Source of the DNA: Candidatus Poribacteria bacterium
GTDB lineage: Bacteria; Poribacteria; WGA-4E; WGA-3G
Assembly (NCBI GenBank): GCA_965204285.1
Contig: OZ241980.1
Coordinates: 261,811-325,810, forward strand
Direction of reading: 5' to 3'
DNA length: 64,000 nt
The notes below the pieces were generated by a model. It saw only the letters and a program-made list of their open reading frames with translations, searched no databases and was not told where the DNA came from. A program made the translations under genes and the position numbers. Shown here piece by piece: positions 1,821 through 58,901 of this stretch (the stretch's first letter is position 1; each line of letters starts with the position of its first letter).

Positions 1821-1918
1821 ATTATGGTGAACCTTGAAATGAAAGAGGCACATATTCTGTAGGAGGGAACTCCGATTCCCGACTAAAACGGGTCGCGATT
1901 CGGAGATCGCTCCTACAG
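1821..1918. repeat. REP-like palindromic element, family 1 (arm order Y-X)
   Basis: ctgtaggagggaactccgattcccgac - 8 nt - gtcgcgattcggagatcgctcctacag forms an imperfect hairpin. The 5' flank tatggtgaaccttgaaatgaaagaggcacat is shared with the copy at 15128. Confidence 0.8.
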
Positions 1919-2178
1919 AATATGAAAAGTTGTGAAAAACAACAAAACTTTCACGTAAATAGCACAAGTCTTATATAACATTCACGTAATAATAAAAAGT
2001 ATCAAAATTTTTGAAAACTAAATAACCCTGATTGGAGAGTAATACCTATTTACATATCCTCAATTTTGTGTTATAATATGGATAAGAACATACAAATTTG
2101 ATTCTACATCACTAAAAACATAAAAAATCGTTCTATAACAAACCCGAAACATCTCAAAACAAATAGGTGGTAAGTTCC

Positions 2179-2958
2179 ATGAGATATAAAAATGTCTACA
2201 TTACAACTATCCTATTGATATTTTTCATCACCCCGCTCGCGATCAGTAAAGATGCTGGATATGATTCCACTTTTGGTCGCACCTCGCTTTCAAATGGAAA
2301 AGATATTGAATATGATTTCACATTTGTCCGGTTGAAATATAGTGGTAGTTTTCGGCATAAGAGTTTGTGGCATATAGATTACCCTGCAGCTGAACGAAAC
2401 TTACTCATTCAACTCAACAAACATACAGACATTAAAGCGAGTCCTGAAGAAAAAGTTATTGAGGTAGGTTCACCAGAACTTTTTGATTATCCTTTTGCAT
2501 ATATAGCGGAATTGAGTCGGCTTAACCTTTCCAAAGCAGAAGCTGAAAATCTTCGGGAGTATCTGTTACGCGGTGGGTTTATCATGATGGACGATTTTCA
2601 CGGCACTGAACAGTGGAGAAGATTCTATAAACAGTACAAGAAGATCTTCCCCAAACGCGAACCGAGAGATATTCCAATGACACACCCGCTTTTCCAATGC
2701 TTCTTTAAGATTGACAAACTGATGCAAATCCCCGCACCCGCTGCCTACCGAAGCGGAAGAACACATGAAAAGGATGGGTATCAAGTGAAATGCATGGGTG
2801 TGTTTGATGATCAAGGCAGACTTATGATGATGATTAACTTCAATACGGATTTAGGGGATGCATGGCAAAATGCTGCAGAATCGTTTTATCCGCGTAAATT
2901 TTCCGATATGGCATTCAAAATGGGGATTAACGCTATTGTCTACACGCTTACCCATTAA
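2179..2958 (+). CDS. DUF4159-family protein, secreted
   Basis: It has an N-terminal signal-like hydrophobic segment. The block PFAYIAELS...LREYLLRGGFIMMDDFHG...W...F...IFP...HPLF is typical of DUF4159. I prefer the ATG at 2179 to the GTG at 2167 listed in the ORF track. Confidence 0.55.
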   Translation: MRYKNVYITTILLIFFITPLAISKDAGYDSTFGRTSLSNGKDIEYDFTFVRLKYSGSFRHKSLWHIDYPAAERNLLIQLNKHTDIKASPEEKVIEVGSPELFDYPFAYIAELSRLNLSKAEAENLREYLLRGGFIMMDDFHGTEQWRRFYKQYKKIFPKREPRDIPMTHPLFQCFFKIDKLMQIPAPAAYRSGRTHEKDGYQVKCMGVFDDQGRLMMMINFNTDLGDAWQNAAESFYPRKFSDMAFKMGINAIVYTLTH

Positions 2959-3071
2959 AGTTATAATATTCGCTTAGTACATTAACATTTTCCCTCCTCC
3001 ATTAAAACCTTAATTTCTTCCGTTCTTTCCAACTTTTTTTCCTCTTTCCCTTAAAAAATCAATTTTTTCTC

Positions 3072-3154
3072 AAATAATTGCAATTTTTTTTCAAAAAGTG
3101 CAATTATTGCTCTCAAAAATGTGTCTATATATTAAAAGACCAATTTATGAGGGT
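3072..3154 (+). promoter_or_regulatory. 83-bp conserved upstream element, copy A, containing AATTGCA-N16-TGCAATT and the palindrome GCAATTATTGC
   Basis: It is 81/83 identical to 5257-5339. It lies about 215 bp upstream of the start of gene 3369. Confidence 0.6.
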
Positions 3155-3368
3155 ATCTCATTATAGATTTAAAATATAACCCGTTATACTATAGTTGACT
3201 TTACACAATTAACCATGCACCGATGCCTGGCGTGAACTAAAAATTGAGTCCGAAGTAATTCGTCAAGAGTATATAGATATTCATGGAGCAGATGTCTATG
3301 AGCGACAAATGGCAGAAATTGCAAAGCACGATCGATATAAAAATAAGTAATTCAAATAGGGAGTTATC

Positions 3369-4151
3369 ATGTTAAAATCTTTTTTCTTTTCAAAACCTGT
3401 TGTTATCGGAATAGCAATTTTATTATTTGTCTCCACGTTATGTTTCTTATACTATCAATCGGTAATAACATCAATTGAGAAAGAACAAGCCAGCGATGAT
3501 AAGATAATTAAATCGTTAACAGAAGATGTCAAGGACTCCGATACACAGAAAATAAATAACGGTGATATAGATTTGCATGGTGACTCTGATATTGTAACTC
3601 CTGAAATTCCTGTTAAAACTAATAAAGCATTAGGCGCGGATCATGATGATTCGGATGTCGATCCATCTGTACAAGAGAATAAATTAACAATGCCTGATAT
3701 GGTAGAAAAGGAAGTTCGGATGTCTCCGTTTGGATTCGGCGCATATCCTAAAATTCCTGATGTTTACAGAGATTTGGGAGGTGTTCAAGATATATGGGGA
3801 CACTTTGAAGAGTTAGCGAAAACTGATCCTGATCAAGCAAGAATACAGGAACTTGGAGAAAGAGTGTTAGTTAAGTTATGGAATGAAGGACTGCAGCCCG
3901 AAGGTGCAAATTACTCAGAAGGTAAATTCTTTCCGCAGTATCCAAATACTGTATATGTCCAATGGGACACAATAACACTTGAAGATGGATCAACAGAAAA
4001 AATCCCAAGTCGTGTTGTAGGAGATCCGGCATTTTCCCAATTTGATCTCCAGTTTTATGAATCCAATGGACAAGATATTCCAGCTGGATTCAATTTGTTA
4101 GATTATGATAAGGATGGTATTGATCCTTATCAATTTCTCAATTTAAAATAA
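3369..4151 (+). CDS. hypothetical signal-anchored protein, paralogous family with 6191-6970
   Basis: It has an N-terminal TM segment. The C-terminal domain is conserved with 6191-6970 (SPFGFGAYPKIPD ... GIDPYQFLNLK versus SPHGLGPYPKIPD ... GIAPYDFLNLE). Confidence 0.6.
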   Translation: MLKSFFFSKPVVIGIAILLFVSTLCFLYYQSVITSIEKEQASDDKIIKSLTEDVKDSDTQKINNGDIDLHGDSDIVTPEIPVKTNKALGADHDDSDVDPSVQENKLTMPDMVEKEVRMSPFGFGAYPKIPDVYRDLGGVQDIWGHFEELAKTDPDQARIQELGERVLVKLWNEGLQPEGANYSEGKFFPQYPNTVYVQWDTITLEDGSTEKIPSRVVGDPAFSQFDLQFYESNGQDIPAGFNLLDYDKDGIDPYQFLNLK

Positions 4152-4180
4152 AGAGGTTAATTATGAAATACTTTGTTTAG

Positions 4181-4561
4181 ATGGTTCTAATATCAGGGCT
4201 TATTTTAAGCGTAATAACTGTCACATTTGCTGGCAGAAATAATGACTATGATGGATCGTTAAGTGGTCATGTCAGCACATGGCAAGGCAAGAAGGATAAA
4301 CTCCCGCGAGCGTATGCATGTGTGAATGGAGGATATAGAAAGTGGGAGGATGGGACATGGAGCCTTACTGCGTATGTGCCAAATCCGCAAACTCAAGGAT
4401 CTCCCTATGACTCTGGATCAGTGGCGTTTAACTCATGGATCTACGAGTCGCATTATCACAGAGGTCATTTCGGTGGCACGGTGAGTCAGTGTTATGCAGC
4501 CGCATTTTGTAATGCGAAAGAGATGAACGGGCCTTGGAGAACCGTTACAACGAGCTGTTAA
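4181..4561 (+). CDS. hypothetical small Cys-rich secreted protein
   Basis: The ORF has a hydrophobic N-terminus and is followed by a perfect hairpin at 4595-4628. No family was recognised. Confidence 0.3.
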   Translation: MVLISGLILSVITVTFAGRNNDYDGSLSGHVSTWQGKKDKLPRAYACVNGGYRKWEDGTWSLTAYVPNPQTQGSPYDSGSVAFNSWIYESHYHRGHFGGTVSQCYAAAFCNAKEMNGPWRTVTTSC

Positions 4562-4594
4562 AATTGAACAGTGTCAATAAGTTAACGCTACAGA

Positions 4595-4676: not shown

Positions 4677-4820
4677 AAGTTGCTACCTATAAGATTTCAG
4701 ACACGCAGACACCATTTTTAATAGAGAACAGTTCGTTATTGGTGAATATCGTAGCGCAAACTTTCAGTTTGCGTTGTTTTATGCACAAACTAAAAGTTTG
4801 TGCTACATAGGTGGCAACTT
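4677..4820. mobile_element. MITE-like element family 2, copy 1 (TIR aagttgctacct / aggtggcaactt)
   Basis: It has 12-bp terminal inverted repeats. Two internal hairpins are present: gcgcaaactttcagtttgcg and gcacaaactaaaagtttgtgc. A second copy with the same TIRs and the same flanking ttttaaccc lies at 55202-55344. Confidence 0.6.
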
Positions 4821-4885: not shown

Positions 4886-4918
4886 TCTGTAGGAGCGACC
4901 TCCTGGTCGCTCCTACAA
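4886..4918. repeat. short perfect palindrome related to REP family 1 (tgtaggagcgacc-tcc-tggtcgctcctaca)
   Basis: Seen directly in the sequence. It shares the ctgtaggagcg arm start with family 1. Confidence 0.6.
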
Positions 4919-5256
4919 AGAAACTCAAAAATCGGAATGATACTTTGTCAATTAGAAATGGTATTAGGTTATTTTAAGTAAACACATTCAAGCGAGGTAA
5001 TCAAGATGTTTCCCATATTAAGAAGCTAAGCAAGACCTTTATACGGTAATTTTGATGCTAATATAGCAGCTATGGCATTCGTAATGCAGCAAATTAATGC
5101 AGTTAATTCACTTGTCAATATGAACAACACTGAGCCGCAAATTAGAACCCTATGAACCTACTCAAATTACTCAGCAGTTACAGACGAATGACGACTTACC
5201 GCGAGAACTGCGATTTATGCACATCCGCCCGTAACATTTTTAATAATAGCACACTG

Positions 5257-5339
5257 AAATAATTGCAATTTTTTTTCAAAAAGTGCAATTATTGCCCTCA
5301 AAAATGTGTCTATATATTAAAAGACCAATTTATGAGAGT
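5257..5339 (+). promoter_or_regulatory. 83-bp conserved upstream element, copy B
   Basis: It is near-identical to 3072-3154. It lies about 215 bp upstream of gene 5555-6175, which is followed by 6191-6970. Confidence 0.6.
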
Positions 5340-10496: not shown

Positions 10497-12658
10497 TCAA
10501 TTAAAACCGAAATAAATAACGTTCAGAGTCGTTCAGTTTAAGGTTTTATCTTTACTTTAGCATGGTCGCGCCCAGGAGTTTCGCTCCTATAGTAAGATAT
10601 CCTTGTAAGAAGGTAGAAACCATTGGAAAATTGAATGGCTCTGAAGCGCGTTTATACAACTTCAATCAGTTCAAATCTGATGAGATTTTCCGTAAATTCA
10701 AAATCATTTTTTAATTGACTTATACTTTTAAATTCTAATTATGTTATACTAATCCTTGTAAAATGTAATACGCTCCAATTTGATTGTGAGATAACCTATG
10801 CAATACAATGATGCTGACCTGATTCAACGCACCTTAGAAGGTGATCAGCAAGCTTTTACGGATCTTGTGGAAAAATACCAAAAACAGATACACGCGTTGG
10901 CGTGGCAGAAGATTGGTGATTTTCACATTGCACAGGAAATTACGCAGGACGCTTTTTTAACTGCGTATCAAAAACTCGCGACGCTCACACATCACAGCCA
11001 GTTTTCAGGATGGATCTATGCTATTACCAGCAATAAGTGCAAAAATTGGCGGCGAAAGAAAAGACTGGCATTTCAATCCTTACAAACAATAGATCCTGTT
11101 GAATTAGAGGAGGTGTATTATTCAGAGTATATGACTAAACAACGCGAAGAAGCAGTAAATCGAAAACGACGCGCTATTGTGCAGAAATTGTTAAGTAAGC
11201 TGCAAGAGAGTGACCGCACCATCGTAAATCTATTTTACATCGCAGAAATGACCTGTGAGGATATTGGAAGGTTTTTAGGTGTATCTCCTAACACCGTCCG
11301 TAGTAGACTCCACCGCGCACGCAACCGATTAAAGAAGGAAGAAGCGATGATTAAAGAAAACTTAAGTAGTTTCCAATTGCCAACACAATTAACTGAAAAC
11401 ATTATGAAAGAGATTTCACACCTTAATCCAGTAGCACCTTCAGGAAACAGACCTCTGGTGCCAATAGTTGTTTCTGCCGCCTCAGCCATTTTAGTACTAT
11501 TGCTGATGGGTGCTGGCACACAATACTTAAATCGTTTTCAGAAACCGTATAGCTTAAACGCACAATCAGAACCGACAATTGAAATAACAGAGACACAACT
11601 TGTCATTGACATGCCAGCAGAACCTGCAGTACGCAACCAGATTGGACGTTCAGATGTCCCAGGCCAAAGTGACGGTGCGGGACAGAAACCAGACACACCA
11701 CTATTCGCTGCAGCACAAGCGGATGATGCCGAAATTTTAAAGGTAAAGCCGCAGTGGGTTAAAACAAAAGGATTTGAAGGCGGTGTAATTAATTCACTTT
11801 TCTCAACAACGCGTAGAGACATTTTTGCAGAGACTACTACAACTCTCTACAAACTCTCAGACAATGGAACGAGATGGAAACCTGTCAAAATATGGTATGC
11901 ACCTTCACTTAGATGGACAGATTGGTCAATAGGTGGCAGACGGATGGTTGAGTCGAACGACACACTCTACATCGTCACAAATGAAGAAATTTGGGCATCC
12001 GTTGATAGAGGAGAGACATGGAATTCACTTGGAACACATCCCGAAGGACCGCCAATAGGTATGGTAAGAACCGATGCAGGGTTTTATCTTGGCCTTGCCG
12101 ATGGGATTTACAGATCTGAAGATGGTATGGCACCGTGGATATCTCTAAAAGATGGAATGGAACCAGGAAAAATTAAGGCGATTGCTGCAGTGGAAAACAC
12201 AGTTTTTGCAGGGACCAATAACGGACTCTATCGTCTCAAAACAGGTGTATGGGAAAAAGTATCAATTAATCAGCCAGATAATACAGAACAAAATCAGGTT
12301 ATCCATGCACTGGCAGTTTCTGAACGCCAACTTTATGCAGCAGTAGGAAAGAAGTTTGAATATAGGTCGGGAAAGCAGCATCAATTAGAACTTACAAATG
12401 ATTCTTGGTGGTCACTCTATCGCTCTAATGATTTTGGTAATTCATGGGATTCCATAGATCCAAGGAAAAGACCATTAAACGAGATAAAATCGAAAAGTGA
12501 AGTGCCAATCAATTTTCCACCCAATGGTGTCAATGTAGCATTAGGTGCAAACCTAAAGATAATAGCGGAAAAAGAAAAAGTTATGGTTGCTGTCCCATCA
12601 GAATTATTCTACTCAATCGATACTGGTGAGACATGGAATTACTTCAGTTTAAATGATA

Positions 12659-13671
12659 ACGTGAGTTTGATAAATAGTATTAGAAATTACATATCATTGG
12701 CAACTGATAGTCATTTTCTTTAAGTTCTTTATGTTTAAGTGAAGGTTTTTTCTGTAGACAGGTATAAGCGATCAAGGCAGCAACTGCATTCACTTGAAAG
12801 TTAACAGGACTTCTATGGCGTGTGTGTTGTATCTCTGTCTGACTTTTAAGTTCTTTATTCACCGACTCAATAAGCATGCGTTTTTTTAGAAGTGCTGCAT
12901 CAGCATCAGACAAAGGTTCAGGTTTCATATTCTTACGCACCTTGTAAATGAGCGTCACACCGTCTTCTTGGAGTCTCTCCCGCAGATTTTTGTTGATATA
13001 CCCTTTATCGGCAAATAGTTTGCCAAAGAGCCCTTGACACAACTGTGGCACGGTTCGCCTGTCATCTACGTTTCCCGCTGTCACCATAGCGGACAAGAGT
13101 TCACCTTGGTCGTTGATGACGAGATGTAGTTTAAACCCATAGAACCATCCCATAGAGGTTTTAGAACGCTCCGCATAATCAATGAAGACGCGATGCGCTG
13201 AAATCCGGCGATTGTGGCAGACCGGCAGCGGTGTTGAGTCTATGAAGGAAATGCCACGACACTTACCGAAACGGGTGTTGAGAAAAATAGACAACAAAAC
13301 CAATACCTCTTGTGAGAGCTGCACAAAACGACTATAGCTGACAAGGTTCGGAAACGCCCAACGCAGATGGAAACAGACATAATCCTGATAATACGCTTTA
13401 AAGTTTTTATACTGCTTCTGATGAAAAAGCACAAGTATCGTCATGACTTCGCTCGGATGAAGGCGCCGGGGTCTGCCCCGTGTGTTGTTTGTTCCGGGTA
13501 TGTCCGGCAACTGGTATTGTGCTTGATATTGTTCATACGTAAGAAAAAAGTCGTCAATTTCACAGAAAAGTGTTATGATATCCATCAGAGAACTCCTTTG
13601 TAAGTATAATGGTATACTTCATCATAACAAAGGGGTTCTCTATTTACCAGTTTTTAATTATCAAACTCACG
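12659..13671 (-). mobile_element. IS982-family insertion sequence (1013 bp)
   Basis: It has perfect 15-bp terminal inverted repeats (acgtgagtttgataa ... ttatcaaactcacgt). A 10-bp direct repeat, ttaaatgata, flanks it on both sides. It encodes one 301-aa transposase. Confidence 0.75.
12680..13585 (-). CDS. IS982-family DDE transposase
   Basis: The 301-aa product begins MDIITLFCEIDDFF and contains a GFKLHLV block and later acidic residues typical of IS982/IS4-like transposases. AAGGAG RBS. Confidence 0.65.
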   Translation of the reverse strand: MDIITLFCEIDDFFLTYEQYQAQYQLPDIPGTNNTRGRPRRLHPSEVMTILVLFHQKQYKNFKAYYQDYVCFHLRWAFPNLVSYSRFVQLSQEVLVLLSIFLNTRFGKCRGISFIDSTPLPVCHNRRISAHRVFIDYAERSKTSMGWFYGFKLHLVINDQGELLSAMVTAGNVDDRRTVPQLCQGLFGKLFADKGYINKNLRERLQEDGVTLIYKVRKNMKPEPLSDADAALLKKRMLIESVNKELKSQTEIQHTRHRSPVNFQVNAVAALIAYTCLQKKPSLKHKELKENDYQLPMICNF

Positions 13672-15052
13672 TTAAATGATAGGTTAGGTGCCAGAATTCC
13701 TTCCCTTGTTCTGATGTTGGATGCAAAGACTTTCTATAGAGTTGGCGAGGCAGGCATTTATCGTACAACCGATGGGGTTAAATCGTGGCATCTGCTTAAT
13801 ACTGGATTATCAAGTGCAACCGTTACAAATATAGTCGCGATTAAAAACCGCGTCTACGCAAAAACAACCGATGAAGTTGTTACTTCAACTGATGGTGGTG
13901 AATCGTGGAGACCGCTACCTATTGATGCTAAAAATATCTTTGTAATGGCAGGATTCAACAATGAACCATATATAAGGCAATATATGAGGAACTTAAAGAA
14001 CGCACCGCCTATTCTACGTTTATCCATTGAGGACAATGAACTTACCCCTATTCCGAATATGCCTGTCTCTGAGGGATTCGATTACATTTTCCAAGAACGA
14101 ATTCCTCCATATTTGATACAATTGGGAAGTTTCGCTGTTAGCGGTGATACCTACTATGTGGAATCTGGACAGAAACTTTACAGATGGAAACTTGGTACAT
14201 ATAAATGGTACAACACAGGTGTAATGGATAAAATGAAACAACCTGATCGCCGCCATAGGGCTACCATGTCTAATGATTATCCGATTGGTATTTCTTCATT
14301 TTTTGTTTCACCCGATTTAATGAGTTTTAAAATTGCAGTTTCAGGCGAAACTATTTACGTCGGCAAACGGGATGGGCATCTCATGCACTCACTTGATGAA
14401 GGAGTTACTTGGAACGATCTTACTGATCATCTACCATTTTCTGTTAAAAGTTATAAATCAATAGTTTGCGCTGGAAACTTTGTCTTTGTGGCAACTGATA
14501 AAGGTGTTATACTGTCTGGCAATGGTGTTGACTGGCACATACTCACAGATATAGAAGGGACACCTCTTATAACAAATAAATTAGTGGTGGATGATATAGC
14601 GGTTTACTGTGAGGCTAAGCAAAAAATATATCAATTGAACAGGAACACGGGCATCTGGCAACCGGTTACACCAGAAATACCATATCCTGTTTCCAGTTTT
14701 GATGTTGATAATGACACGCTTTATGCCGGAACTTTTGGTGGGGGCGTGCTACGTTTTTCACTTGATAATCAGAATTGAGTGATGCATTTATAATATCTCC
14801 AATATTCGATTCACATTGAATTAATATTTCTCCAAGCGGGATAAAATCCCGCTTTTTTAGTTTAAGTTAAATTTATAGAATTTAAGCATTTACTTGTTTT
14901 CTGCTATAATAATTGCAACACTTATAAAATCTGAAGAGCGCAATAAAATTGATCCTACTTCTGAAAACGAACTGGCTACGTAACCCATAAATATAATTTC
15001 ACCATCTTGCCAATCTTTCCTAAAAAAATCTATAAAATTCATATTCTTTCTA

Positions 15053-15085
15053 AAAATTGCATTTTTTTTCAAAAAAGTGCAATAT
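15053..15085 (+). promoter_or_regulatory. AATTGCA-N16-TGCAAT inverted repeat, third occurrence, upstream of the intact sigma-fusion gene
   Basis: It has the same half-sites and the same T8-C-A6 spacer as the 83-bp elements at 3072 and 5257. Confidence 0.45.
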
Positions 15086-15127
15086 CTAATCAGAAAATCG
15101 CGTTTATAATTACAGAAGGTTCTTTCA

Positions 15128-15230
15128 TTGTATGGTGAACCTTGAAATTAAAGAGGCACATTTTCTGTAGGAGCGATCTCCGAATCGCGACAAAACTCAC
15201 TGATAGTCGGGAATCGGAGTTCCCTCCTAC
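15128..15230. repeat. REP-like element family 1 (arm order X-Y)
   Basis: ctgtaggagcgatctccgaatcgcgac - 14 nt - gtcgggaatcggagttccctcctac. Its 5' flank tatggtgaaccttgaaattaaagaggcacat is shared with 1821. Confidence 0.8.
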
Positions 15231-15296
15231 GCCTCAAAATGTCCTGTTAATTCTAAAGGTCACTATAATTGAATTTTTCTATATCTAAGGTGTACG

Positions 15297-18200
15297 ATGA
15301 AAAACGATGATTCTGAACTAATTCAACGCACATTAGAAGGTGACCAACACGCTTTTGCTCTACTCGTAGAAAAATACCAAGAGCAGGTACACACCCTTGC
15401 GTGGCAAAAAATTGGTGATTTTCACATTGCACAAGAAATCACGCAAGATGTTTTCCTCACTGCATATCAAAAATTCTCGACCTTCACACACTACAGACAA
15501 TTTGCAGGATGGCTCTATGTTGTTACAAACCGAAAGTGCATTGCATGGCACCGGAAGAAAAAAATAAAAACACAATCAATTGATGAGACAAATCCAATTG
15601 AGTTGGAGGAAGCATATTATACAGAATATATGGCGCATCAGCGGGAAGAATCAGCAAAAGAAAAACGCCGCACTATAGTTCATAAACTGCTCAGCAAGCT
15701 AAAGGAAAGTGACCGTACAGTGATGAACCTCTATTACATCGCTGAAATGTCATGTGAAGAAATTGCTGAGTTTTTGGGTGTATCTCCCAATACGGTTCGG
15801 AGTAGACTCCACCGCGCACGCAACCGATTAAAGAAGGAGGAAGCAATGATTAAAGAAAATCTCAGCAGTTTCCAACTGCCAACACAATTAACTGAAAACA
15901 TTATGAAGGAAATTTCACGTCTCAATCCAGCGGCACCTTCTGGAAATAAACCACTTGTGCCGATAGCAGTTTCTGCCGCCGCTGCAGTTTTAGTCTTAAT
16001 GCTGATAGGGACTGGGATGCAATACTTAAATCGTTTTCAGAAACCGTATAGCTTAAACGCACAATCTGAGCCGACGATTGAGATAACAGAGACACAACTT
16101 GTCATTGACACACCAGTAAAACCGTCTGTACGGACTCAGGTTGGGAAATCTGATGTAACAGGTAGAACAGAAGGGGCAGGTCAAAAACCGGACGCGCCAC
16201 TATTGGCTGCAGCACAAGTGGATGAAGATGAAATATCAAAACCGATACGGCAATGGAGAGATGCAAAAGGACCGGAAGGTGGTGCAGTTGGTACTCTCTT
16301 CACAACAAACAGCGGTGACGTGTATGCAACGTCAAAAAACGGTCTCTACAGACTCACAGGTGATGGAAAAGCATGGAAACTCATAAACACTATTAAATAT
16401 TCTTCCGGTGATGCACTAACAGGAAGGAATGTATTTCGACATGTAGCAGAATGGCAGAATACATTCTACCGTGCTATTGATACAAAAATCTTCGCTTCTA
16501 CAGATAGAGGCGCGACATGGAAAGAATTTTGCGAGTGTATAAAAGGTGATCTTGTTGGTATGGTGATAACAGGAAGTAATCCAGAATCTGAAAGCGATAT
16601 GACAATCTACCTTGCTTACAAGAAAGGAGTCTTCCGTTCAGATAATGCTGGCAAATCGTGGACACCACTACCCGAAGGTATCAACGATAGACAAATTGGT
16701 GTAATCACTAATATAGGAAATACTGTTTTTGTCGGTACTGACAAAGGACTTTATCGTCTTAACGCTGATAAATGGGAACAATTGTCCATCGCTCAAGCAG
16801 ATACGAAAGAAAACACGCTACCTATTATTGCGATGGAAGTTGCAGAAAATAGCCTCTATGTTGTTACAAGGAAAAGTATATTTGGAGATCCTGATCCATT
16901 ATACACAAGTTTCGGTTTGTCGCGTGTAAGAATCAATTCTCGGATACCAAGAATTGGATTTAAACCTCGTGAACCATACGTGTGGTCAATCTTTCGTTCA
17001 GATGATATAGGCAATTCATGGAAAACTATTACGCCAGATAGCAACAATATAAAGAAGAAACCAGGGCAAAAGCCAAAAATCTCCAATATATTTCCACCAC
17101 GTAAGAACGAAGGCGATGCTCCCTTTATAACATCTCTGGATACAACCTTCAAAATGTCTGCAGCGGTGGGAAAGGTGGTAGTAATAGATGGTGAGGCATT
17201 CTTTTTTTCTATCAATGCTGGTGAAACTTGGAGAACCGTAGACAAAACGGCTAATATAGGTAAGACTTCTGGTTTGGCATTGTTAAATGAGAATACTATC
17301 TATGTATCTGGAAGATTCGGAATTTATCGCTCGACTGATGGCGGAGAATCATGGCATGAATTTAATACCGGTTTAGTGAACACAGAAGTTCGGGAATTAA
17401 TTGCTGTTAAAGGAACCCTCTACGCAAACACAAGAACTGGACTTTTCAGTTCTGTTGACGGTGGAGAATCGTGGATACCTGTTCCAGGCGATACTGGCTA
17501 TCTCACGCGTTTGGCGAAATTTAACGAGGAGCTCTATGTAAGAGATGATAAAATCGGTGCACCCCGGTTTTTCCGCTTTTCCGCCAAAGACAATAGACTC
17601 ATGGACATCTCAGAAATACCTGCCTTTAAAAAAGTTGATTTTCATAAAGAAGTACGTGAGAAACCAATTCAGGATAGAGGACCTATAACATCGGTACCAC
17701 ACGGAAAGGGAAGTTTTTATACGTTGATGCTTGGTAGCTTTGCTGTCAATGATGGAACGTATTATGTGGAATATATGCAAAAACTCTTCAAATGGAAATC
17801 TGGTATACCTGAATGGTCCAACACTGGATTATTAGATAAAATTGGTATCGAGAAAAATTGGTATTCCAATAACTTATTCGATTCTATTGGCTTTAGGCTT
17901 GCTGCCTCAGAGAATAATGTTTACGTTGGAAAATGGGATGGTCATCTCATGCAATCGTTTGATGAAGGCAACACATGGAATGATGTCACCGCGAATCTTC
18001 CATTTTCTGTCGTCCATTTTAGGGCAATAGTTTTCGCTGGAAACTTTGTTTATGTCGCAACCGACAAGGGCGTCGTGCTGTCAGGCAACGGCAATGACTG
18101 GCACATACTCACTGATGCAGAAGGGGCTGCTCTTGTTATGAATAGATTAGCAGTGGATGACACGACGGTTTACGGGGAATCTAAGCGAATAGTTTACCAA

Positions 18201-18338
18201 CTGAACAGGAATTCTGGCACGTGGCTGCAAGTCACGCCAGAAATTTCATATCCTGTTAACTGTCTTGCTGTTGATGGGGATACGCTTTATGTCGGTACAG
18301 CTGGATCCGGGGCACTCCGCTTTTCGCTTGATAATTAA
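15297..18338 (+). CDS. ECF sigma-70 domain / single TM / BNR-Asp-box beta-propeller fusion protein (intact paralog C, 1013 aa)
   Basis: The N-terminus has sigma-70 region 2 (LVEKYQEQVHTLAWQKIGDFHIAQEITQDVFLTAY) and region 4 (DRTVMNLYYIAEMSCEEIAEFLGVSPNTVRSRLHRARNRL). A hydrophobic helix follows (LVPIAVSAAAAVLVLMLIGTG). The rest is about 750 aa with repeated S-x-D-x-G-x-(S/T)-W motifs. Confidence 0.8.
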   Translation: MKNDDSELIQRTLEGDQHAFALLVEKYQEQVHTLAWQKIGDFHIAQEITQDVFLTAYQKFSTFTHYRQFAGWLYVVTNRKCIAWHRKKKIKTQSIDETNPIELEEAYYTEYMAHQREESAKEKRRTIVHKLLSKLKESDRTVMNLYYIAEMSCEEIAEFLGVSPNTVRSRLHRARNRLKKEEAMIKENLSSFQLPTQLTENIMKEISRLNPAAPSGNKPLVPIAVSAAAAVLVLMLIGTGMQYLNRFQKPYSLNAQSEPTIEITETQLVIDTPVKPSVRTQVGKSDVTGRTEGAGQKPDAPLLAAAQVDEDEISKPIRQWRDAKGPEGGAVGTLFTTNSGDVYATSKNGLYRLTGDGKAWKLINTIKYSSGDALTGRNVFRHVAEWQNTFYRAIDTKIFASTDRGATWKEFCECIKGDLVGMVITGSNPESESDMTIYLAYKKGVFRSDNAGKSWTPLPEGINDRQIGVITNIGNTVFVGTDKGLYRLNADKWEQLSIAQADTKENTLPIIAMEVAENSLYVVTRKSIFGDPDPLYTSFGLSRVRINSRIPRIGFKPREPYVWSIFRSDDIGNSWKTITPDSNNIKKKPGQKPKISNIFPPRKNEGDAPFITSLDTTFKMSAAVGKVVVIDGEAFFFSINAGETWRTVDKTANIGKTSGLALLNENTIYVSGRFGIYRSTDGGESWHEFNTGLVNTEVRELIAVKGTLYANTRTGLFSSVDGGESWIPVPGDTGYLTRLAKFNEELYVRDDKIGAPRFFRFSAKDNRLMDISEIPAFKKVDFHKEVREKPIQDRGPITSVPHGKGSFYTLMLGSFAVNDGTYYVEYMQKLFKWKSGIPEWSNTGLLDKIGIEKNWYSNNLFDSIGFRLAASENNVYVGKWDGHLMQSFDEGNTWNDVTANLPFSVVHFRAIVFAGNFVYVATDKGVVLSGNGNDWHILTDAEGAALVMNRLAVDDTTVYGESKRIVYQLNRNSGTWLQVTPEISYPVNCLAVDGDTLYVGTAGSGALRFSLDN

Positions 18339-18387: not shown

Positions 18388-18446
18388 CTGTAGCGCAAAC
18401 TGTTAGTTTGCGTCACATCGGCACAAACTAACAGTTTGTGCTACAC
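18388..18446. repeat. solo internal double-hairpin of MITE-like family 2
   Basis: It has gcgcaaactgttagtttgcg and gcacaaactaacagtttgtgc but lacks the TIRs. Confidence 0.55.
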
Positions 18447-20073: not shown

Positions 20074-20126
20074 TTCCTTGTATCCCTTTGTTGTAGTAAA
20101 GCAAATATAATGAATTATAAAAATAT

Positions 20127-20280
20127 GTTGACATCTCTTCTGTAGGAGCGATCTCCGAATCGCGACTTTGACATCTCTTCTGTAGGAGCGATCTCCGAAT
20201 CGCGACTTTGACATCTCTTCTGTAGGAGCGATCTCCGAATCGCGACCCATTTGAGTCGTGAATCGGAGTTCCCTCCTACA
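20127..20280. repeat. tandem array of REP family 1: three direct 40-bp units plus one inverted arm
   Basis: The unit tttgacatctcttctgtaggagcgatctccgaatcgcgac occurs 3 times. It is followed by ccatttgagtc and then gtgaatcggagttccctcctaca. Confidence 0.85.
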
Positions 20281-20301
20281 ATATCTAAAGTATCAGAACC
20301 G

Positions 20302-21483
20302 TTAAACCACTTCCATCCATACCCCCGGCACAAACCCAGGATACTTCCCTTCACTGAACGCAGGATAATATTCACCCTCTCCACTAAAATCGTGGACAGT
20401 CTCTCCGCCATCCGCATTTGGAATATGTACTCTGCACGTATAATCAGTTTGGTGGAACAGCTGCTGCGGTGTCGGTGTTGAACTCTCAACGCGATATGTT
20501 GCCAATGCATCCTCATCCACAGAGACTCCCAGTCCCGGTGAATCTGGAACATGGATCGTCCCTTCAACTACTTCGAGTCGGTTCTCAAGTAAATCCGATT
20601 CCCACAACTCATGGCAGGTGATTGCTGGCAATTCGGCTTGCGATAGCACTGCACCGAGATGCACACAATGTGCTGTTGTAATGCCAGTGCCGACCATCTG
20701 AAGCCAGAACGGTTGCCCAAACGAGGCACAAAGTGCATTAGTCCGAAGTAGTGAGTTGACACTGCCTCCAACAACAAATCCGCCACAACAGCGCGCATGT
20801 AAACAGGATTCGTTGTAATGCTCTACAATACGTTTTTCAACAGCCTCCTGCAACCTTGCCGCGCCCTCAATATCTGTCCCAAGATAGAACGGACTTTCGT
20901 AGATAGCAACATTCGGATGTTCATCTAACTTCTGTAAAACAGGAATAGCGTTGTCCGCTGTCAGTAGGAAACCGTTGAAGTCAATGTCAAGTTTGTAATC
21001 CGCCGGTACCGCATTGCCAACTGCGTCAACTTGTGCGAAGATGTCTCGCCATGGTCTCGCTTTGAGTTTGGCAGATGTATAACCTCTTTTAACCGATTCC
21101 TGCACTTCCGCAACCCAATCCTCTGGCGGCATGTCGATATCCCACCATGAGATCGGACACTTTTCACGCACCTTTGGACCAATCAGTTCAGACACGGATA
21201 CACCCACCGTTTTACCAACAGCATCATAAAGCGACATCTGGATACCGAACCCGACACCATCATCGTGCATACACGCAAACGGATTTTTTCCTATCAACCG
21301 TTCAATATTACCCGATTCATCAGATAAATTTTCACCATACCCTATAATTCCGTTACTCAATTCTACGCGATAGACGTGAACCCTTTCGCCATGCGTTGCT
21401 GCTCGATGCATGTGTCGACTGACACGATCACAATAAAAAGGCACATTCAAGGGGATTGTTTCTATATGTTTGATGCTAAGCAT
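20302..21483 (-). CDS. enolase-superfamily enzyme (mandelate racemase / muconate lactonizing enzyme-like)
   Basis: KLDIDFNG, ESPF and other MR/MLE-like blocks are present. The RBS is TTAGGAGG. It has a C-terminal extension of about 60 aa. Confidence 0.6.
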   Translation of the reverse strand: MLSIKHIETIPLNVPFYCDRVSRHMHRAATHGERVHVYRVELSNGIIGYGENLSDESGNIERLIGKNPFACMHDDGVGFGIQMSLYDAVGKTVGVSVSELIGPKVREKCPISWWDIDMPPEDWVAEVQESVKRGYTSAKLKARPWRDIFAQVDAVGNAVPADYKLDIDFNGFLLTADNAIPVLQKLDEHPNVAIYESPFYLGTDIEGAARLQEAVEKRIVEHYNESCLHARCCGGFVVGGSVNSLLRTNALCASFGQPFWLQMVGTGITTAHCVHLGAVLSQAELPAITCHELWESDLLENRLEVVEGTIHVPDSPGLGVSVDEDALATYRVESSTPTPQQLFHQTDYTCRVHIPNADGGETVHDFSGEGEYYPAFSEGKYPGFVPGVWMEVV

Positions 21484-21769
21484 GTTGCCCTCCTAATCTA
21501 TGGGTTGTTGCGAATTGTAGCATATTCTATAAATTATCGGTTAAGAAATTTGAAGAAAACCGAAGAAAGTCACAACAAATAAAATGAGAAGTTGAATCAG
21601 TTTTACCGTAGAAACGATCTCCGAATCACAACGTATTCTCTGTAATATTACATAATCTTATGTTCTATATCAGTTGACATGCCTCCTATTTGTTGGTATA
21701 ATTTCAATCATACATCCAACATTAAAATACATTTATTTTCTAATATTTCTTGGAGGCGACAAACACATT

Positions 21770-22636: not shown

Positions 22637-23458
22637 TTGATGAAAACTGTGTTGATATTGCTACTGTTTATTGCTTCCTGTGTTACAGCAAGTTTGTTGT
22701 CTCAGGTGAATAATGAAACTAAAATTGTGAAAGTCCCTACTGGTATGGTGTTGATTCCCACAGGCGAATTTGAGATGGGAAGCAAAAAAGGTGACCGTGA
22801 CGAGAAACCTATACATACTGTGCATCTTGATGCGTATTACATAGATAAACATGAGGTTACAGTTGGAGAGTACAAAAAGTTCATCAATGCCACTGGACAT
22901 AGCGCACTACCAGATTCTGTTTTTCGATGTTCTCCTACCGACCAGCATCCAGTTGTCGGTGTAAGTTGGCACGATGCTATGGCTTACGCAAAGTGGGCAG
23001 GAAAACGTTTACCGACAGAAGCAGAATGGGAGAAAGCCGCACGAGGCGGTTTAATAGGGCAGAAATATCCGTGGGGAAATGAGATTGATAGCAATAAAGC
23101 GAACTACAACAAGAACACAAAATCTGGCACGCATGATGAGCAGACAACACCTATAAGAAAGTACTCTGCTAATACGTACGGATTATTTGATATGTCTGGT
23201 AATGTAGCGGAATGGTGTCTTGATGCATATCAGAAAAATTATTACGCAAATTCTCCTCAACGCAACCCTATCGCTGGAGCAGAAAACCTAAATCAGATTA
23301 TCAATAATTTCAAAGATGTAAAGACACGTCGTGTTGTCCGGGGCGGTTCGTGGAGTTTCAACGCAAAGAGTGTGCGTGTAGCAAACCGCATGGGTGAGAA
23401 ACCTTCGCTTTTGAGTAGTGATGTTGGATTTAGATGTATCCGAGATGTAAATCCTTAA
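22637..23458 (+). CDS. formylglycine-generating-enzyme (FGE / SUMF1) domain protein, secreted
   Basis: Signal peptide. Blocks PVVGVSWHDAMAYAKWAGKRLPTEAEWEKAARGG ... RVVRGGSWS ... RCIRD are typical of the FGE-sulfatase domain. Confidence 0.7.
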   Translation: MMKTVLILLLFIASCVTASLLSQVNNETKIVKVPTGMVLIPTGEFEMGSKKGDRDEKPIHTVHLDAYYIDKHEVTVGEYKKFINATGHSALPDSVFRCSPTDQHPVVGVSWHDAMAYAKWAGKRLPTEAEWEKAARGGLIGQKYPWGNEIDSNKANYNKNTKSGTHDEQTTPIRKYSANTYGLFDMSGNVAEWCLDAYQKNYYANSPQRNPIAGAENLNQIINNFKDVKTRRVVRGGSWSFNAKSVRVANRMGEKPSLLSSDVGFRCIRDVNP

Positions 23459-23541
23459 AATATGTTGACACTTCTTCTGTAGGAGCGATCTCCGAATCGC
23501 GATGGAACATAGAAATAGTCGGGAATCGGAGTTCCCGTCCG
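23458..23541. repeat. REP-like element family 1 (arm order X-Y)
   Basis: ttgacacttcttctgtaggagcgatctccgaatcgcgat - 14 nt - gtcgggaatcggagttcccgtcc. Confidence 0.8.
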
Positions 23542-23618
23542 TTAAATACCAAAAGCGCATTTGGCGTTGATTCACAAATCAAATGCAAGTTAATTGTAAA
23601 ATTCGCTATTAATACTTT

Positions 23619-55177: not shown

Positions 55178-55201
55178 AGATTGTGCCTACTATTTTAACC
55201 C

Positions 55202-55344
55202 AAGTTGCCACCTTTGTAACATAATCTGTTAGATTGTGCCTATAAGTGCGCAAACTGACAGTTTACGCTACAAAGTTTCGCAAATAATGCTCTTTTTTGA
55301 TTAAAACGGTGTTTACATGTCTGAAATCTTATAGGTGGCAACTT
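55202..55344. mobile_element. MITE-like element family 2, copy 2 (TIR aagttgccacct / aggtggcaactt)
   Basis: It has the same TIRs, size (143 bp) and left flank ttttaaccc as 4677-4820. Internal hairpin gcgcaaactgacagtttacgc. Confidence 0.6.
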
Positions 55345-56927: not shown

Positions 56928-57014
56928 CGTTGTTTCCTAAAGAAATGGCGAGGCACCAAATTAACGCTGTGAATGCCTTTTGGCATTCAGCGGAGACCTC
57001 ACCCTACAAATGAG

Positions 57015-57962
57015 TTATGAGATAGTCTGTAAAATATCTTCTGCAAGTTGCATAGTTTTCACTGCCTCGTCCAAATTAGCTGCAGGGAGTGAAACGGGAG
57101 TATCAGATTTAACACAATCCAGAAAATACCTGTTCTGTTCAACGCTGCCGCTACTTCCTGACTCAGTGAGTTTGTGTTGTGTACCATCACAGAAGATTGT
57201 TCCATGCGAAACTCCCTCAAGATATGCTGAGATGTTTCTACCGTGAATCTCGTATCGTTCAAGACGTGCATCAGTCGTATAATTTGCAATGAGTTGTGCA
57301 ACACAACCGTTCTCAAAGAGAATCAAGGCAGCGTGAACATCCTTGTAATCTGAAATTGTGCGTTGAACAACACCATGCACTTCCTGAACATCCGATTCGG
57401 CAATTGCACGGAGTGTATCCAGGGCATGGATAGGTGTTTCCAGAAACATATTATCCATCAGATGTTCCGGGAATCTGGACGATTGTGCTAAACGTGTGAT
57501 ACTCTTATGAAATTCACCGACCAATTGAGTGACATCTCCACGTGCTTTAACGCGTTGGGTTGCCTCCACAATAATCGGATGAAAACGACGATTCCAACCT
57601 ACCATCCCTTTCGCACCGGTTTTCTTAGCAGTATCCCGCAAATTGATTGTTTCTGCAACGCTCATCCCAGGCGGTTTTTCAAGCAGTGTGTTGACTCCAC
57701 GTGCTAAACATGGCGCTGCAGCTTCACCGTTTAGGTGCGCTGGCGTTGCAACAATAACCGCATCCAGTGTTTCATTGTACAGTAACGCTTCAATCGTGTC
57801 ATAACGTTTTGAGACTTTAAAAGTGTCACCTGCATTGTTCCGTGCATTTTCTACAGGATCACAGACTGCAACGAGATCGGTATCTTCAAATTCAGAGAGG
57901 ATATTCATGTGACCGCGTCCGCGTCCACCACATCCAATAACTGCAACTTGTAGGTTTGCCAT
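57015..57962 (-). CDS. Gfo/Idh/MocA family oxidoreductase
   Basis: VAVIGCGGRGRGH N-terminus. Confidence 0.7.
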   Translation of the reverse strand: MANLQVAVIGCGGRGRGHMNILSEFEDTDLVAVCDPVENARNNAGDTFKVSKRYDTIEALLYNETLDAVIVATPAHLNGEAAAPCLARGVNTLLEKPPGMSVAETINLRDTAKKTGAKGMVGWNRRFHPIIVEATQRVKARGDVTQLVGEFHKSITRLAQSSRFPEHLMDNMFLETPIHALDTLRAIAESDVQEVHGVVQRTISDYKDVHAALILFENGCVAQLIANYTTDARLERYEIHGRNISAYLEGVSHGTIFCDGTQHKLTESGSSGSVEQNRYFLDCVKSDTPVSLPAANLDEAVKTMQLAEDILQTIS

Positions 57963-57973
57963 AATATTCTCCG

Positions 57974-58777
57974 CTAATGCCTTATGTGTGGTGCTTCCAT
58001 CACTTCACGTTGTTCAGGAGACATGTCCTCAATATACTCTGGATATTCAATGTGATGTGCCCCCGCACTATATGCCTGAAAACCTGGACTAAATTTATAA
58101 AGTAGGGCACGCCGTTGGTGTGATGCTTTCCACGGAAGCGTACCATGCGTTAAAGTCTCAGTGAAGATAACAGCATCGCCTGCCTTGGCGTTGACTTCAT
58201 GCACTAAGTGCTGATATTTTTCGTATCGTTTCATATTACTCGGACATGGTAGGTTCGCTTTGTGACTGCCGGGAATAATCGCGAGACCACCGTCACCAGG
58301 TCCTTCGTCTGCAAGCATATATTCCACAACAGTGAGCCCTGTGTAAATGCGTCCATATTTGAAGAAATAAGCCTCAGAGAAATTAGGGCGTTCAATTCCA
58401 CCACCATGTAAGGTGCCGCCTTCCGTGCCATCTTCCATAGCGATTAAGCCTGGCCCGTGGTCAAGTCGGTATTTCTTGCCTAAAACTTCTTCCAAGTGTG
58501 GTTTAACGTTTGGATGTACCAGTAACTCACGGAACGGTTCACACCACGGTTTTTCCCATGCCAACATGCCACCCATATCCATGCGGTGAGCGGTTCCAGA
58601 AAGAGCTTCTGAACCGCCTGCTAATGAGTTCTCGCGTTCTCTGAGAGATTCTATGTGATGGTCAATTGCTGCATTGCACTGTTCAACCTCTTCGGAGGAA
58701 AGCGCATTTTCAACAATGATATATCCCGTCAAATCAAATAGGTATTTTTGTTCTTCATTCATAAGTGATTTCTCCAA
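57974..58777 (-). CDS. PhyH-family dioxygenase
   Basis: LHGGG ... PGSHK ... THGT pattern. Confidence 0.5.
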   Translation of the reverse strand: MEKSLMNEEQKYLFDLTGYIIVENALSSEEVEQCNAAIDHHIESLRERENSLAGGSEALSGTAHRMDMGGMLAWEKPWCEPFRELLVHPNVKPHLEEVLGKKYRLDHGPGLIAMEDGTEGGTLHGGGIERPNFSEAYFFKYGRIYTGLTVVEYMLADEGPGDGGLAIIPGSHKANLPCPSNMKRYEKYQHLVHEVNAKAGDAVIFTETLTHGTLPWKASHQRRALLYKFSPGFQAYSAGAHHIEYPEYIEDMSPEQREVMEAPHIRH

Positions 58778-58836
58778 GGTTGATGACGGATGAAGATTAG
58801 TGTTCTATATACACTAAAATTGCGAGTCTTGTCAGG

Positions 58837-58901
58837 AGTCGGGAATCAGAGTTCCCTCCTACAAAGAGAGGTATTCTGTAGGAGCGATCTCCGAATCGCG
58901 A
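58837..58901. repeat. REP-like element family 1 (arm order Y-X)
   Basis: gtcgggaatcagagttccctcctacaaag - 9 nt - ctgtaggagcgatctccgaatcgcgac. Confidence 0.8.

Follow-up and report, generated by a model that had tools for sequence, protein, structure and literature searches.

The window analysed here, a 64-kb stretch of DNA from a sponge-symbiont Poribacteria genome, contains 12 copies of a short repeated unit against an expectation of 0 from shuffled sequences, which confirms that the repeat family described in the original prediction is real. The unit is 25 nt long and is built of GTAG, GA, a 5-bp stem enclosing a 6-nt loop, and GAC, with the consensus (C)T-GTAG-GA-[5-bp stem]-CTCCGA-[stem]-GAC. 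Its stem occurs in four compensatory versions of one unit, which we call X (GCGAT/ATCGC), Y (GGGAA/TTCCC), Z (GGGAT/ATCCC) and W (GCGAC/GTCGC). At no more than one mismatch, X (GTAGGAGCGATCTCCGAATCGCGAC) has seven matches in the window and Y (GTAGGAGGGAACTCCGATTCCCGAC) has four. X and Y had been taken for mutually complementary arms; they do form an inverted pair, but they are two compensatory versions of a single hairpin, which differ by two flipped base pairs and mismatch each other at four positions. The copies are spread unevenly and confined to 1.8-23.6 kb and 58.8 kb, rather than spaced at roughly one per 8 kb as had been estimated. No transposase genes were found in the window, which carries non-autonomous copies only.

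The copies are arranged at the following sites. Element A (1825-1968) is a chimeric head-outward (HH) dimer whose x-type shell arm at 1825-1858, preceded by TA at 1823-1824, is joined to a core of Y (1859-1883, + strand), an 8-nt linker and X (1892-1916, - strand), followed at about 1917-1968 by a right flank of a different type that is common to loci L047 and L066. Element B (15133-15265) is a complete HH element of 133 nt, consisting of an x-arm (15133-15166), X (15167-15191, +), a 14-nt linker, Y (15206-15230, -) and a y-arm (15231-15265); it is bordered by TA on both sides (15131-15132 and 15266-15267) and has full-length matches at about 20 loci. Element C (20108-20313) starts with a left shell arm (20108-20141) and includes X followed by TTTGACATCTCTTCT three times over, with X starting at 20142, 20182 and 20222 (+), then an 8-nt linker and Y at 20255-20279 (-) with one mismatch, while its degenerate right arm reaches into the 3' end of a convergent gene. 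The predicted tandem array is present as three exact repeats of 40 nt at 20127-20246. A CRISPR array was ruled out for 20127-20280, the 15-nt "spacers" being identical in the three copies and not unique. Element D (23441-23611), also HH, has a left arm (about 23441-23478) that overlaps the upstream ORF's stop, followed by X (23479-23503, +), a linker of 14 nt, Y in decayed form (23518-23542, -) and a right arm at about 23576-23611, ahead of which an unrelated hairpin module beginning CCAAAAGCGCATTTGG has been inserted at about 23543-23575. Element E (58799-58937) is head-inward (TT), with Y (58838-58862, -) and X (58878-58902, +) separated by a linker of 15 nt; its outer arms are decayed but match an IS630-family insertion sequence (IS) at the transposase-distal end, and in the transposase frame the right arm still encodes ..LYPQN... 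The repeated unit is larger than the arms first reported: at sites B, C, D and E it is an element of 133-205 nt whose inverted outer arms are conserved. The variant and degenerate copies that had been listed also exist: a self-complementary variant unit at 4888-4915 (GTAGGAGCGACC-TCC-TGGTCGCTCCTAC) with the W-type stem GCGACC/GGTCGC, in which the complement of the head stands in place of the tail; a strongly degenerate unit with an indel at 10565-10592 (- strand, reverse complement ATAGGAGCGAAACTCCTGGGCGCGAC), which falls below the census threshold and was read directly; and a degenerate single unit at 21608-21632 (+, GTAGAAACGATCTCCGAATCACAAC, 3 mismatches) in a divergent intergenic region.

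A flank common to two copies was present as predicted, with 32 of 34 positions identical between 1825-1858 and 15133-15166. At site A its neighbour is Y and at site B it is X, and at 1825 it marks a rare recombinant. Recombination within hairpins, which had been offered as one possible cause, is a fair explanation for the single flank and arm swap at 1825-1883; such swaps are rare, amounting to 4 of 126 arm-unit junctions with the x-arm beside Y at site A among them.

Our census covered 515 units in 1.79 Mb of sampled loci. Exact units occur in more than 114 stretches, and all 80 of the 80 stretches listed come from Poribacteria metagenome-assembled genomes, one of them titled only "uncultured bacterium"; at least 120 further metagenome stretches carry X/Y units. 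The unit was found in every Candidatus Poribacteria genome sampled (about 45 species), so that among the matches listed the X/Y units are abundant and phylum-wide in Poribacteria, and at loci picked independently of the repeat the density is about 11 units per 70 kb. Because complete long-read chromosomes from about 45 species carry the same units, as do metagenome contigs obtained independently, we discount the possibility, raised at the outset, that they are collapsed-repeat assembly artefacts. The units are 95% extragenic, with only 14 of 262 lying inside ORFs even though ORFs make up 79% of the DNA. In their orthologous coding DNA these genomes share only 78-91% identity. Per-column conservation reaches 0.99 for the units and 0.76-0.84 for the shell arms, the unit figure being inflated because loci were retrieved by exact unit match and units were accepted at no more than 3 mismatches.

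The hairpin is well supported by covariation between helix positions 7-11 and 18-22. Both variable pairs are Watson-Crick in 468 of 515 units (91%), and the inner helix is 88% paired with 55 double-change cells, a score reached by none of 500 shuffles, while slid-window controls gave at most 54% pairing. One stem position shows four pair types, produced by independent compensatory changes. The GTAG head is present in the large majority of 69 distinct unit variants. Immediately 5' of GTAG a (C)T is conserved, T occupying position -1 in 72% and C position -2 in 57%.

Pairing is almost exclusively between an X and a Y in inverted orientation: the census holds 89 HH and 22 TT dimers of this kind and a single inverted homodimer, alongside 24 same-type HT junctions, tandem arrays of up to 10 units, and singletons. 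The heterodimers recur with at least five different linkers and shells. With this pairing each arm is able to fold its own small hairpin, and the long inter-arm hairpin is broken by four like-with-like mismatches. The rule may in part reflect founders, a small number of master copies having been amplified. Of the arm orders described for the window, the copy at 1857-1918 is the same HH dimer as that at 15166-15230 read from the other strand, and only 58838-58902, with its GTAG ends inward, is genuinely different.

Our data show in part that most X/Y pairs, including those at sites B-E, form the core of TA-flanked, inverted-repeat, non-autonomous elements of 133-144 bp. The termini read TA-TAGTG on both sides in 54 of 106 HH dimers (length mostly 132-140 nt, range 111-140) and CTAGTG on both sides in 13 of 28 TT dimers (121-144 nt, mostly 133-144); HH and TT elements are uniformly flanked by TA/CTAG, and the 133-144-nt elements are non-coding. 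Judged by alignment, both arms of the TT shells reproduce the final 35-41 nt of an IS630-family IS resident in these genomes: they align with the transposase-3' ends of the IS at loci L001, L075 and L019 and retain the transposase codon remnants LYPKN*/LYPQV*. The family was typed from NF033545 (130 bits against a cutoff of 100) and a DDE_3 match, and a full IS and a TT element lie on one chromosome (L001, OZ244563.1). HH arms have only the eight terminal bases TAGTGGAT in common with the IS630 end, and no full-length IS bearing the HH arm sequence was found among the sampled loci. Mobility is documented by one clean empty-site case, belonging to a third shell type that is neither the 137-nt HH nor the TT: loci L117 and L118 contain a 177-nt terminal-inverted-repeat (TIR) element with a Y>X< core (AACT-TA-[177 nt]-TA-ATCG), and the otherwise identical L120 is without it (AACT-TA-ATCG), which amounts to a TA duplication. 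Bacterial miniature elements (MITEs) of the IS630/Tc1-mariner type, such as RUP of S. pneumoniae and the Correia elements of Neisseria, are about 100-150 bp long, intergenic and hairpin-forming, have terminal inverted repeats and a TA duplication, and have their partner IS elsewhere in the genome. The X/Y elements resemble them in size, intergenic position, hairpin formation and terminal inverted repeats, and would probably also share the TA duplication and the partner IS elsewhere; the suggestion that the repeats are MITE-like was well founded, given TA-flanked inverted-repeat shells related to IS630 ends and one insertion polymorphism. They differ in that the REP heterodimer core is better conserved than the TIRs and that in the TT type both arms come from the same transposase-distal IS end.

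Our preferred reading, to which we give a probability of roughly 55%, is that the repeats are a GTAG-tagged REP hairpin family, probably specific to Poribacteria, that has mostly been moved inside IS630-derived MITE shells. IS630-family DDE transposases encoded elsewhere in the genome would act in trans to cut and paste the shells at TA, and a structure- and sequence-specific protein would recognise GTAG and the foot of the hairpin, which would be why the REP units are nearly invariant. By analogy, this protein would most likely be a Y1 transposase of the RAYT type that works on single-stranded DNA, and it may also create single units, new shell contexts and tandem arrays. Rare exchanges between arms or in the shared head (TTCTGTAGGAG) would yield chimeras such as site A.

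A rival account would have the elements be plain IS630-derived MITEs, with X and Y as the interior of one ancestral MITE, singletons and arrays as products of decay, and the REP likeness a coincidence. Roughly half the dimers do have both shell termini, several of the "singletons" can be recognised as truncated dimers, and shell-proximal sequence is repeated together with X in the tandem arrays. X/Y is absent, however, from full-length IS copies, and the same units recur in at least five shells that are unrelated to one another as well as in unique contexts, sometimes singly and in either orientation. With a core more conserved than the TIRs, the opposite of a usual MITE, four pair types at one stem position reached by independent compensatory changes, and a head and tail identical to those of Pseudomonas REPs, we regard this account as improbable.

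A further rival is a classical REPIN/RAYT (REPtron) system, in which the whole palindrome of about 137 nt would be a REPIN copied through single-stranded intermediates by a dedicated X/Y-flanked RAYT outside the sampled loci, and the IS630 likeness of the arms would be secondary, for example through IS ends captured once. As expected of REPINs, the units have a GTAG head and a covarying hairpin and occur in high copy number as doublets and clusters; moreover, the units are better conserved than the shells, and Poribacteria do encode RAYTs at a conserved locus (L059:5565-6137, 176 bits on NF047646, with orthologues in a syntenic position). Family-specific REPtrons are usual in species with several GTAG families, according to PMC3733652. 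We found no RAYT in the window, however, nor any within 8 kb of the approximately 515 X/Y units (1.79 Mb), and the repeats on either side of the Poribacteria RAYTs examined (L059, L115-L121) belong to fam2 (GTAGGGTGCGCACTGCGCACC), a different and rare GTAG REP family; the REPtron part of the original prediction is therefore not borne out, and the RAYT part of our model rests on analogy because the only RAYT found is flanked by fam2. The TA duplication at one clean insertion and the TA-flanked termini suit a DDE rather than a Y1 transposase, and the TT arms are IS630 ends with codon remnants included. This explanation is doubtful, though it is the strongest of the competitors.

It is also conceivable that the conservation reflects host function instead of mobility, the repeats being RNA or DNA elements under host selection, for instance terminators, stabilisers of mRNA 3' ends or protein-binding sites like those of BIMEs for IHF or gyrase. 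Folded as RNA, the doublets are stable (-48 to -54 kcal/mol, z-scores -4 to -8), conservation of the unit across species is extreme, and E. coli BIMEs bind host proteins. Against this, REP-containing regions are 126 tandem, 23 convergent and 50 divergent compared with a background of 627, 94 and 122, so that the terminator or 3'-end role once suggested finds no bias towards convergent or 3' intergenic regions; the hairpins lack a following U-tract and an Rfam search gave no family match. Element positions differ between species, with no conserved placement among the loci compared across Poribacteria, and a presence/absence polymorphism exists (L117/L118 versus L120). We consider host selection very improbable.

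The description of the repeats as REP-like was apt: the units have a GTAG head and a hairpin that covaries, are numerous and 95% extragenic, and form clusters and HH, TT and HT dimers. GTAG-tagged REPs are defined (PMC3733652) as stem-loops of 20-40 bp with an unpaired GTAG at one end, and the X/Y unit has this stem-loop and tag together with a high copy number, an extragenic location and HH/TT/HT dimers that include heterodimers. The GTAG-1/2 layout given in Table 1 of that source (GTAG, a GW dinucleotide, a stem and a conserved 3-bp tail) is read directly in GTAG-GA-stem...stem-GAC. The 35-bp REP of P. putida KT2440 (PMC11585281) has the same head CTGTAGGAGCG and the same tail CGCGA, and it is on this comparison that the sequence-level assignment to GTAG-1 rests. 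Relative to the GTAG-1 REPs of Pseudomonas, the X/Y units are alike in the GW after GTAG, the short stem-loop, the 3-nt tail, the extragenic location and high copy number, the HH, TT and HT dimers, the clusters, and the heterodimers of compensatory stem variants. They differ in their stem, which is just 5 bp long and encloses the conserved 6-nt loop CTCCGA, in an exact unit common to about 45 species without a flanking RAYT (1.79 Mb), in the enclosure of most dimers in transposon-derived shells, and in their host, a candidate phylum with no mention in the sections of Di Nocera et al. 2013 (PMC3733652) used here.

E. coli BIMEs combine Y and Z REP types in alternating orientation and are associated with TnpA_REP/RAYT (PMC3333891, PMC8266576). 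The X/Y system is similar in having two REP types, head-to-head and tail-to-tail arrangements, characteristic linker lengths, heterotypic pairing as the rule and variable tandem copy number, but its types differ by flipped base pairs rather than by bulge or loop length, and its linkers are 14 and 16 nt. REPINs are inverted REP doublets that form a long hairpin and constitute the commonest unit, many singletons being decayed doublets (Bertels & Rainey 2011, PMC3116915). Inverted doublets are likewise commonest among X/Y units and many singletons are decayed doublets, but REPINs are defined by a cognate flanked RAYT and make no TA duplication, whereas the X/Y units have no RAYT beside them in 1.79 Mb and the one clean insertion shows a TA duplication. 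We conclude that the units make up a new family of REPs and that the elements are an unusual chimera of REP and MITE, two known kinds of selfish DNA. In one further published case REP dimers lie regularly inside a longer palindrome beginning TATAG, and empty palindromes are rare; the sequences are unrelated, and no IS family or target duplication was tied to that case. A historical link between the two is conceivable because the nearest named relatives of the Poribacteria RAYT are cyanobacterial, at about 60% identity.

The repeat family named in the original prediction is real. Allowing up to 3 mismatches per arm, we found in the window 7 occurrences of X (GTAGGAGCGATCTCCGAATCGCGAC) and 4 of Y (GTAGGAGGGAACTCCGATTCCCGAC), against an expectation of 0 in dinucleotide-preserving shuffles, and repeat finding recovered the same family together with an exact 3 x 40-nt array at 20127-20246. 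The identity of its 15-nt spacers rules out a CRISPR reading of this tandem array, and Rfam at gathering thresholds gave no match in the window. Three further sites described earlier as variant or degenerate copies exist and are weak: a self-complementary variant at 4888-4915, a copy with an indel at 10565-10592 and a copy with 3 mismatches at 21608-21632.

X and Y are a single hairpin in two compensatory versions, because the four positions at which they differ fall on both sides of two base pairs in an internal 5-bp hairpin, which reads (stem/loop/stem) G-C-G-A-T / CTCCGA / A-T-C-G-C in X and G-G-G-A-A / CTCCGA / T-T-C-C-C in Y. When X is paired with Y' in one long hairpin, the same four positions give C.C, T.T, A.A and G.G mismatches. 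Our census of 1.79 Mb (235 sequences) counted 515 units, including 188 X, 214 Y, 37 of a version Z (GGGAT/ATCCC) and 24 of a version W (GCGAC/GTCGC), and 468 of the 515 are Watson-Crick at both variable pairs. The 69 distinct variants show covariation in the inner helix, with 88% pairing versus 73% in shuffles, 55 double-change cells versus 25 and all four Watson-Crick pairs at one stem position; none of 500 shuffles matched the covariation score, and controls in which the helix was slid reached at most 54% paired. A competing GGAG/CTCC helix is conserved, and it is uninformative because it is invariant. Only 14 of 262 units lie inside ORFs of at least 120 aa, though such ORFs make up 79% of the DNA.

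We name the dimers head-outward (HH, GTAG ends outside) or head-inward (TT, GTAG ends inside) after Di Nocera et al. 2013 (PMC3733652). Inverted pairs combine X with Y: there are 89 X+Y HH dimers (linker mode 14 nt) and 22 X+Y TT dimers (linker mode 16 nt), with a single inverted homodimer. Units of the same type are joined head to tail at 24 junctions, in arrays of up to 10 units, and the remaining units stand alone; several of these singletons can be seen to be truncated dimers. Since heterodimers were found with five or more different linkers and shells, the pairing rule is more than one amplified master copy. The original prediction had the two arms in both orders; this holds for 58838-58902, whose GTAG ends point inward, while 1859-1916 turns out to be the arrangement of 15167-15230 on the other strand. 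A second GTAG-headed hairpin family occurs in the window at 4751-4806, 18390-18444 and about 55190-55271 as head-outward heterodimers (GTAGCGCAAACT-TTC-AGTTTGCG with GTAGCACAAACT-TTT-AGTTTGTGC) and has 19 units in 13 of the sampled loci; here too the two arms are distinguished by a compensatory change in the stem.

The genomes and metagenomes were scanned with the degenerate pattern GTAGGAGSGAWCTCCGAWTCSCGAC, which covers all 16 combinations at the four variable positions. In the species-representative genome collection it matches more than 114 stretches, and all 80 of the matches listed are Candidatus Poribacteria MAGs (one titled only 'uncultured bacterium'), spanning about 45 species with complete long-read chromosomes among them. 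It also matches at least 120 metagenome stretches and only two viral contigs (L243 and L244, from IMG/VR), each with one exact unit; these contigs could be prophages of Poribacteria or host DNA wrongly classed as viral. Segments orthologous to the window are 78-91% identical in three poribacterial loci, so the window is poribacterial, and the collapsed-repeat artefact that had been considered does not explain the repeats. The positions of REP-containing sites are not kept between species. Our literature searches found no description of the X or Y sequence or of REPs in Poribacteria. We conclude that X/Y represents a new REP family of the GTAG type, which forms BIME/REPIN-like heterodimers and, as far as sampled, is specific to Poribacteria.

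The two arms were at first taken to be the element; the repeated entity is longer. Both inside and outside the window, X/Y mostly forms the core of a MITE shell that is derived from IS630 and flanked by TA, and the sequences on either side of the dimers are likewise conserved and inverted. HH elements end in TA-TAGTG...CACTA-TA, with both termini present in 54 of 106 HH dimers at lengths mostly of 132-140 nt (full range 111-140); the consensus of 46 copies is 137 nt, the shell arm has the sequence TATAGTGGATTTTACAATTAAC, and site B at 15133-15265 is complete and has TA on either side. TT shells measure 121-144 nt, mostly 133-144, and start with CTAGTGGATAGTCCA; an IS of 1260 bp in the genome locus L001 (3557-4816) has this sequence as its terminal inverted repeat, and its two ORFs are typed as IS630-family transposase (NF033545 at 130 bits with a cutoff of 100, plus DDE_3 and HTH_32). 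The TT arms are of IS630 origin: both are homologous to the transposase-distal IS end over 35-41 nt, the last transposase codons included, and where the IS copies read ..LYPKS*, ..LYPQTQGG* and ..LYPSTEG*, the TT arms read LYPKN* and LYPQV*, and that of the window LYPQN. X/Y is absent from full-length IS copies. Two such IS630-family copies (L001:3430-4816 and L019:165-1446) lie 5-15 nt from X/Y units or a TT element, consistent with reports of REPs as IS insertion targets (Tobes & Pareja 2006, as cited in PMC3116915).

One insertion was observed directly. In orthologous loci from the same project, 177 nt are present in L117 and L118 and absent from L120, the empty site reading AACT-TA-ATCG and the filled one AACT-TA-[TACTC...Y>X<...GAGTA]-TA-ATCG; the inserted element has terminal inverted repeats around a Y>X< core, and TA is duplicated at the site. 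A systematic search for filled and empty sites among the sampled loci gave three candidates, from distant species and with boundaries too diverged to read, and two window ORFs looked up with a view to strain-level empty sites had no exact protein match on record. HH and TT shells would be mobilised in trans by an IS630 transposase. Some shell arms carry a -35-like TTGACA, with no -10 at the proper distance.

Other modules accompany the units. A short hairpin module, (G)AATCAACGCCAAATGCGCTTTTGGCATT, often tandem, lies at about 23543-23575 in the window and beside Y units in L025, L046, L072, L083, L094 and L099, where it separates the Y unit from the shell arm or takes the arm's place, and a related module, AAATCAACGGTATGAATGCC..GGCATTC, is joined to truncated units in L009, L097, L130 and L170. 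A further shell of about 130 nt, with termini CAGGGCTATTTAGTT...AACTAAATAGCCCTG and without evident TA flanks, encloses single units that are X or Z depending on the genome (L005, L016, L100, L014, L073, L049, L067 and L093).

Column conservation is 0.99 in the units, a figure inflated by ascertainment, with 0.76-0.84 in the arms and 0.80 in the linker. Ascertainment cannot account for the unit mismatch distribution, which peaks at zero, exact units dominating the census. The x-arm of the shell goes with X in 55 cases and the y-arm with Y in 67, with 4 swaps. Site A is one of these swaps: the flank shared between two copies in the original prediction is real, 1825-1858 agreeing with the site B x-arm at 32/34 positions, yet it adjoins Y and is the sign of a rare recombinant. 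Hybrid units are known, for example in L053, and therefore exchange between arms occurs.

A REPtron-like system had also been suggested. Motif regex and tblastn searches found no RAYT in the window, none in 120 metagenome loci and none near any X/Y unit across 234 loci; in the window plus 114 genome loci the one RAYT found is L059:5565-6137 (NF047646 at 176 bits, with a PF01797 match). This RAYT is flanked by fam2 (GTAGGGTGGGCACTGCCCACC, also given as GTAGGGTGCGCACTGCGCACC, with compensatory variants), a GTAG REP different from X/Y and rare, with 8 units in 1.79 Mb. Its homologues, 65-70% identical, lie at a syntenic locus with the order VWA-TPR-HD-RAYT-x (166 aa)-methyltransferase-ferrochelatase (L059:5446-6760; L115-L121), in three tandem copies in L116 and with a partial duplication in L059, and the nearest named relatives are cyanobacterial at about 60% identity. 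Among the six homologues inspected with flanks (including P0008, P0010, P0015, P0011 and P0026), every poribacterial one is flanked by fam2; P0026 is probably not poribacterial, because its locus has a different GTAG repeat and GCGATCGC motifs. Clustering the ORFs near repeats for a linked gene returned only large paralogous housekeeping families and three IS630 copies. By analogy with known REPs, the hairpin may be conserved through recognition by a RAYT-like protein.

Placement relative to genes gave no sign of a terminator or stabiliser role, since there is no 3'-end or convergent bias: by rough ORF calls, the intergenic regions with REPs divide into 126 tandem, 23 convergent and 50 divergent, against a background of 627, 94 and 122.

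REPs are among the commonest bacterial repeats. How they spread is, to our knowledge, still little understood, and nearly all work on it concerns Proteobacteria. PMC3733652 describes HH, TT and HT (head-to-tail) dimers, clusters, compensatory stem subfamilies and heterodimers for GTAG-tagged REPs, all of which X/Y shares, and proposes that heterodimers, as imperfect long palindromes, evade SbcCD-type processing. X/Y also resembles GTAG-1/2 of that survey in the GW dinucleotide after GTAG and the 3-nt tail, and its head CTGTAGGAGCG and tail CGCGA have the same bases as the REP of P. putida KT2440, the reverse complement of CCGGCCTCTTCGCGGGTAAGCCCGCTCCTACAGGG (PMC11585281). REP dimers within long palindromes have a precedent in Anabaena. 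Small dispersed repeats (SDRs), reportedly described in Nostoc by Elhai et al. in 2008, offer a possible comparison. The kinds of element involved are known; for the way they are combined, for its host phylum and because it apparently lacks a linked RAYT, X/Y is a variant that merits genome-wide follow-up, and not a new category.

To a reading in which this abundant REP family switched vehicles we give roughly one chance in four. X/Y pairs, freed from a flanking RAYT, would persist across the phylum as conserved cores of MITEs born by inverted duplication of IS630 ends around a REP dimer, an origin that would account for both arms coming from the same IS end. A Y1/HUH-type repeat would thus be fused with a DDE-transposon shell, its cargo under stronger constraint than the transposase-binding ends, which would imply a protein or structural function for the hairpin pair.

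What was observed is evidence that REP dimers move within IS630-derived, TA-duplicating shells, no cognate RAYT being nearby. If a RAYT is truly absent, REP persistence needs no REPtron, and this would hint at how the unexplained cyanobacterial REP dimers within long palindromes arose. The family also places REPs in a sponge-symbiont phylum that is uncultured, the exact unit being common to about 45 species among the matches listed, and provides a natural experiment on hairpin recognition, with four compensatory stem versions and inverted pairs that are almost always heterotypic. In sponge metagenomes the 25-mer is a marker for Poribacteria DNA, specific as far as sampled, and a likely cause of assembly breaks.

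Two other repeated features were seen in the window. At 3052-3129, 5237-5314 and 15031-15128, upstream of paralogous gene clusters, there is a 78-nt AT-rich repeat that contains the palindrome AATAATTGCAATTTTTTTTCAAAAAGTGCAATTATT and could act as a common operator or promoter. A set of paralogues with BNR/Asp-box-like repeats (S-x-D-x-G-x-S-W) occupies 21-1784, 10798-14778 and 15297-18338; they are 70-77% identical at the DNA level, and one of them encodes 1013 aa with an N-terminus that looks ECF-sigma-type as judged by eye only.
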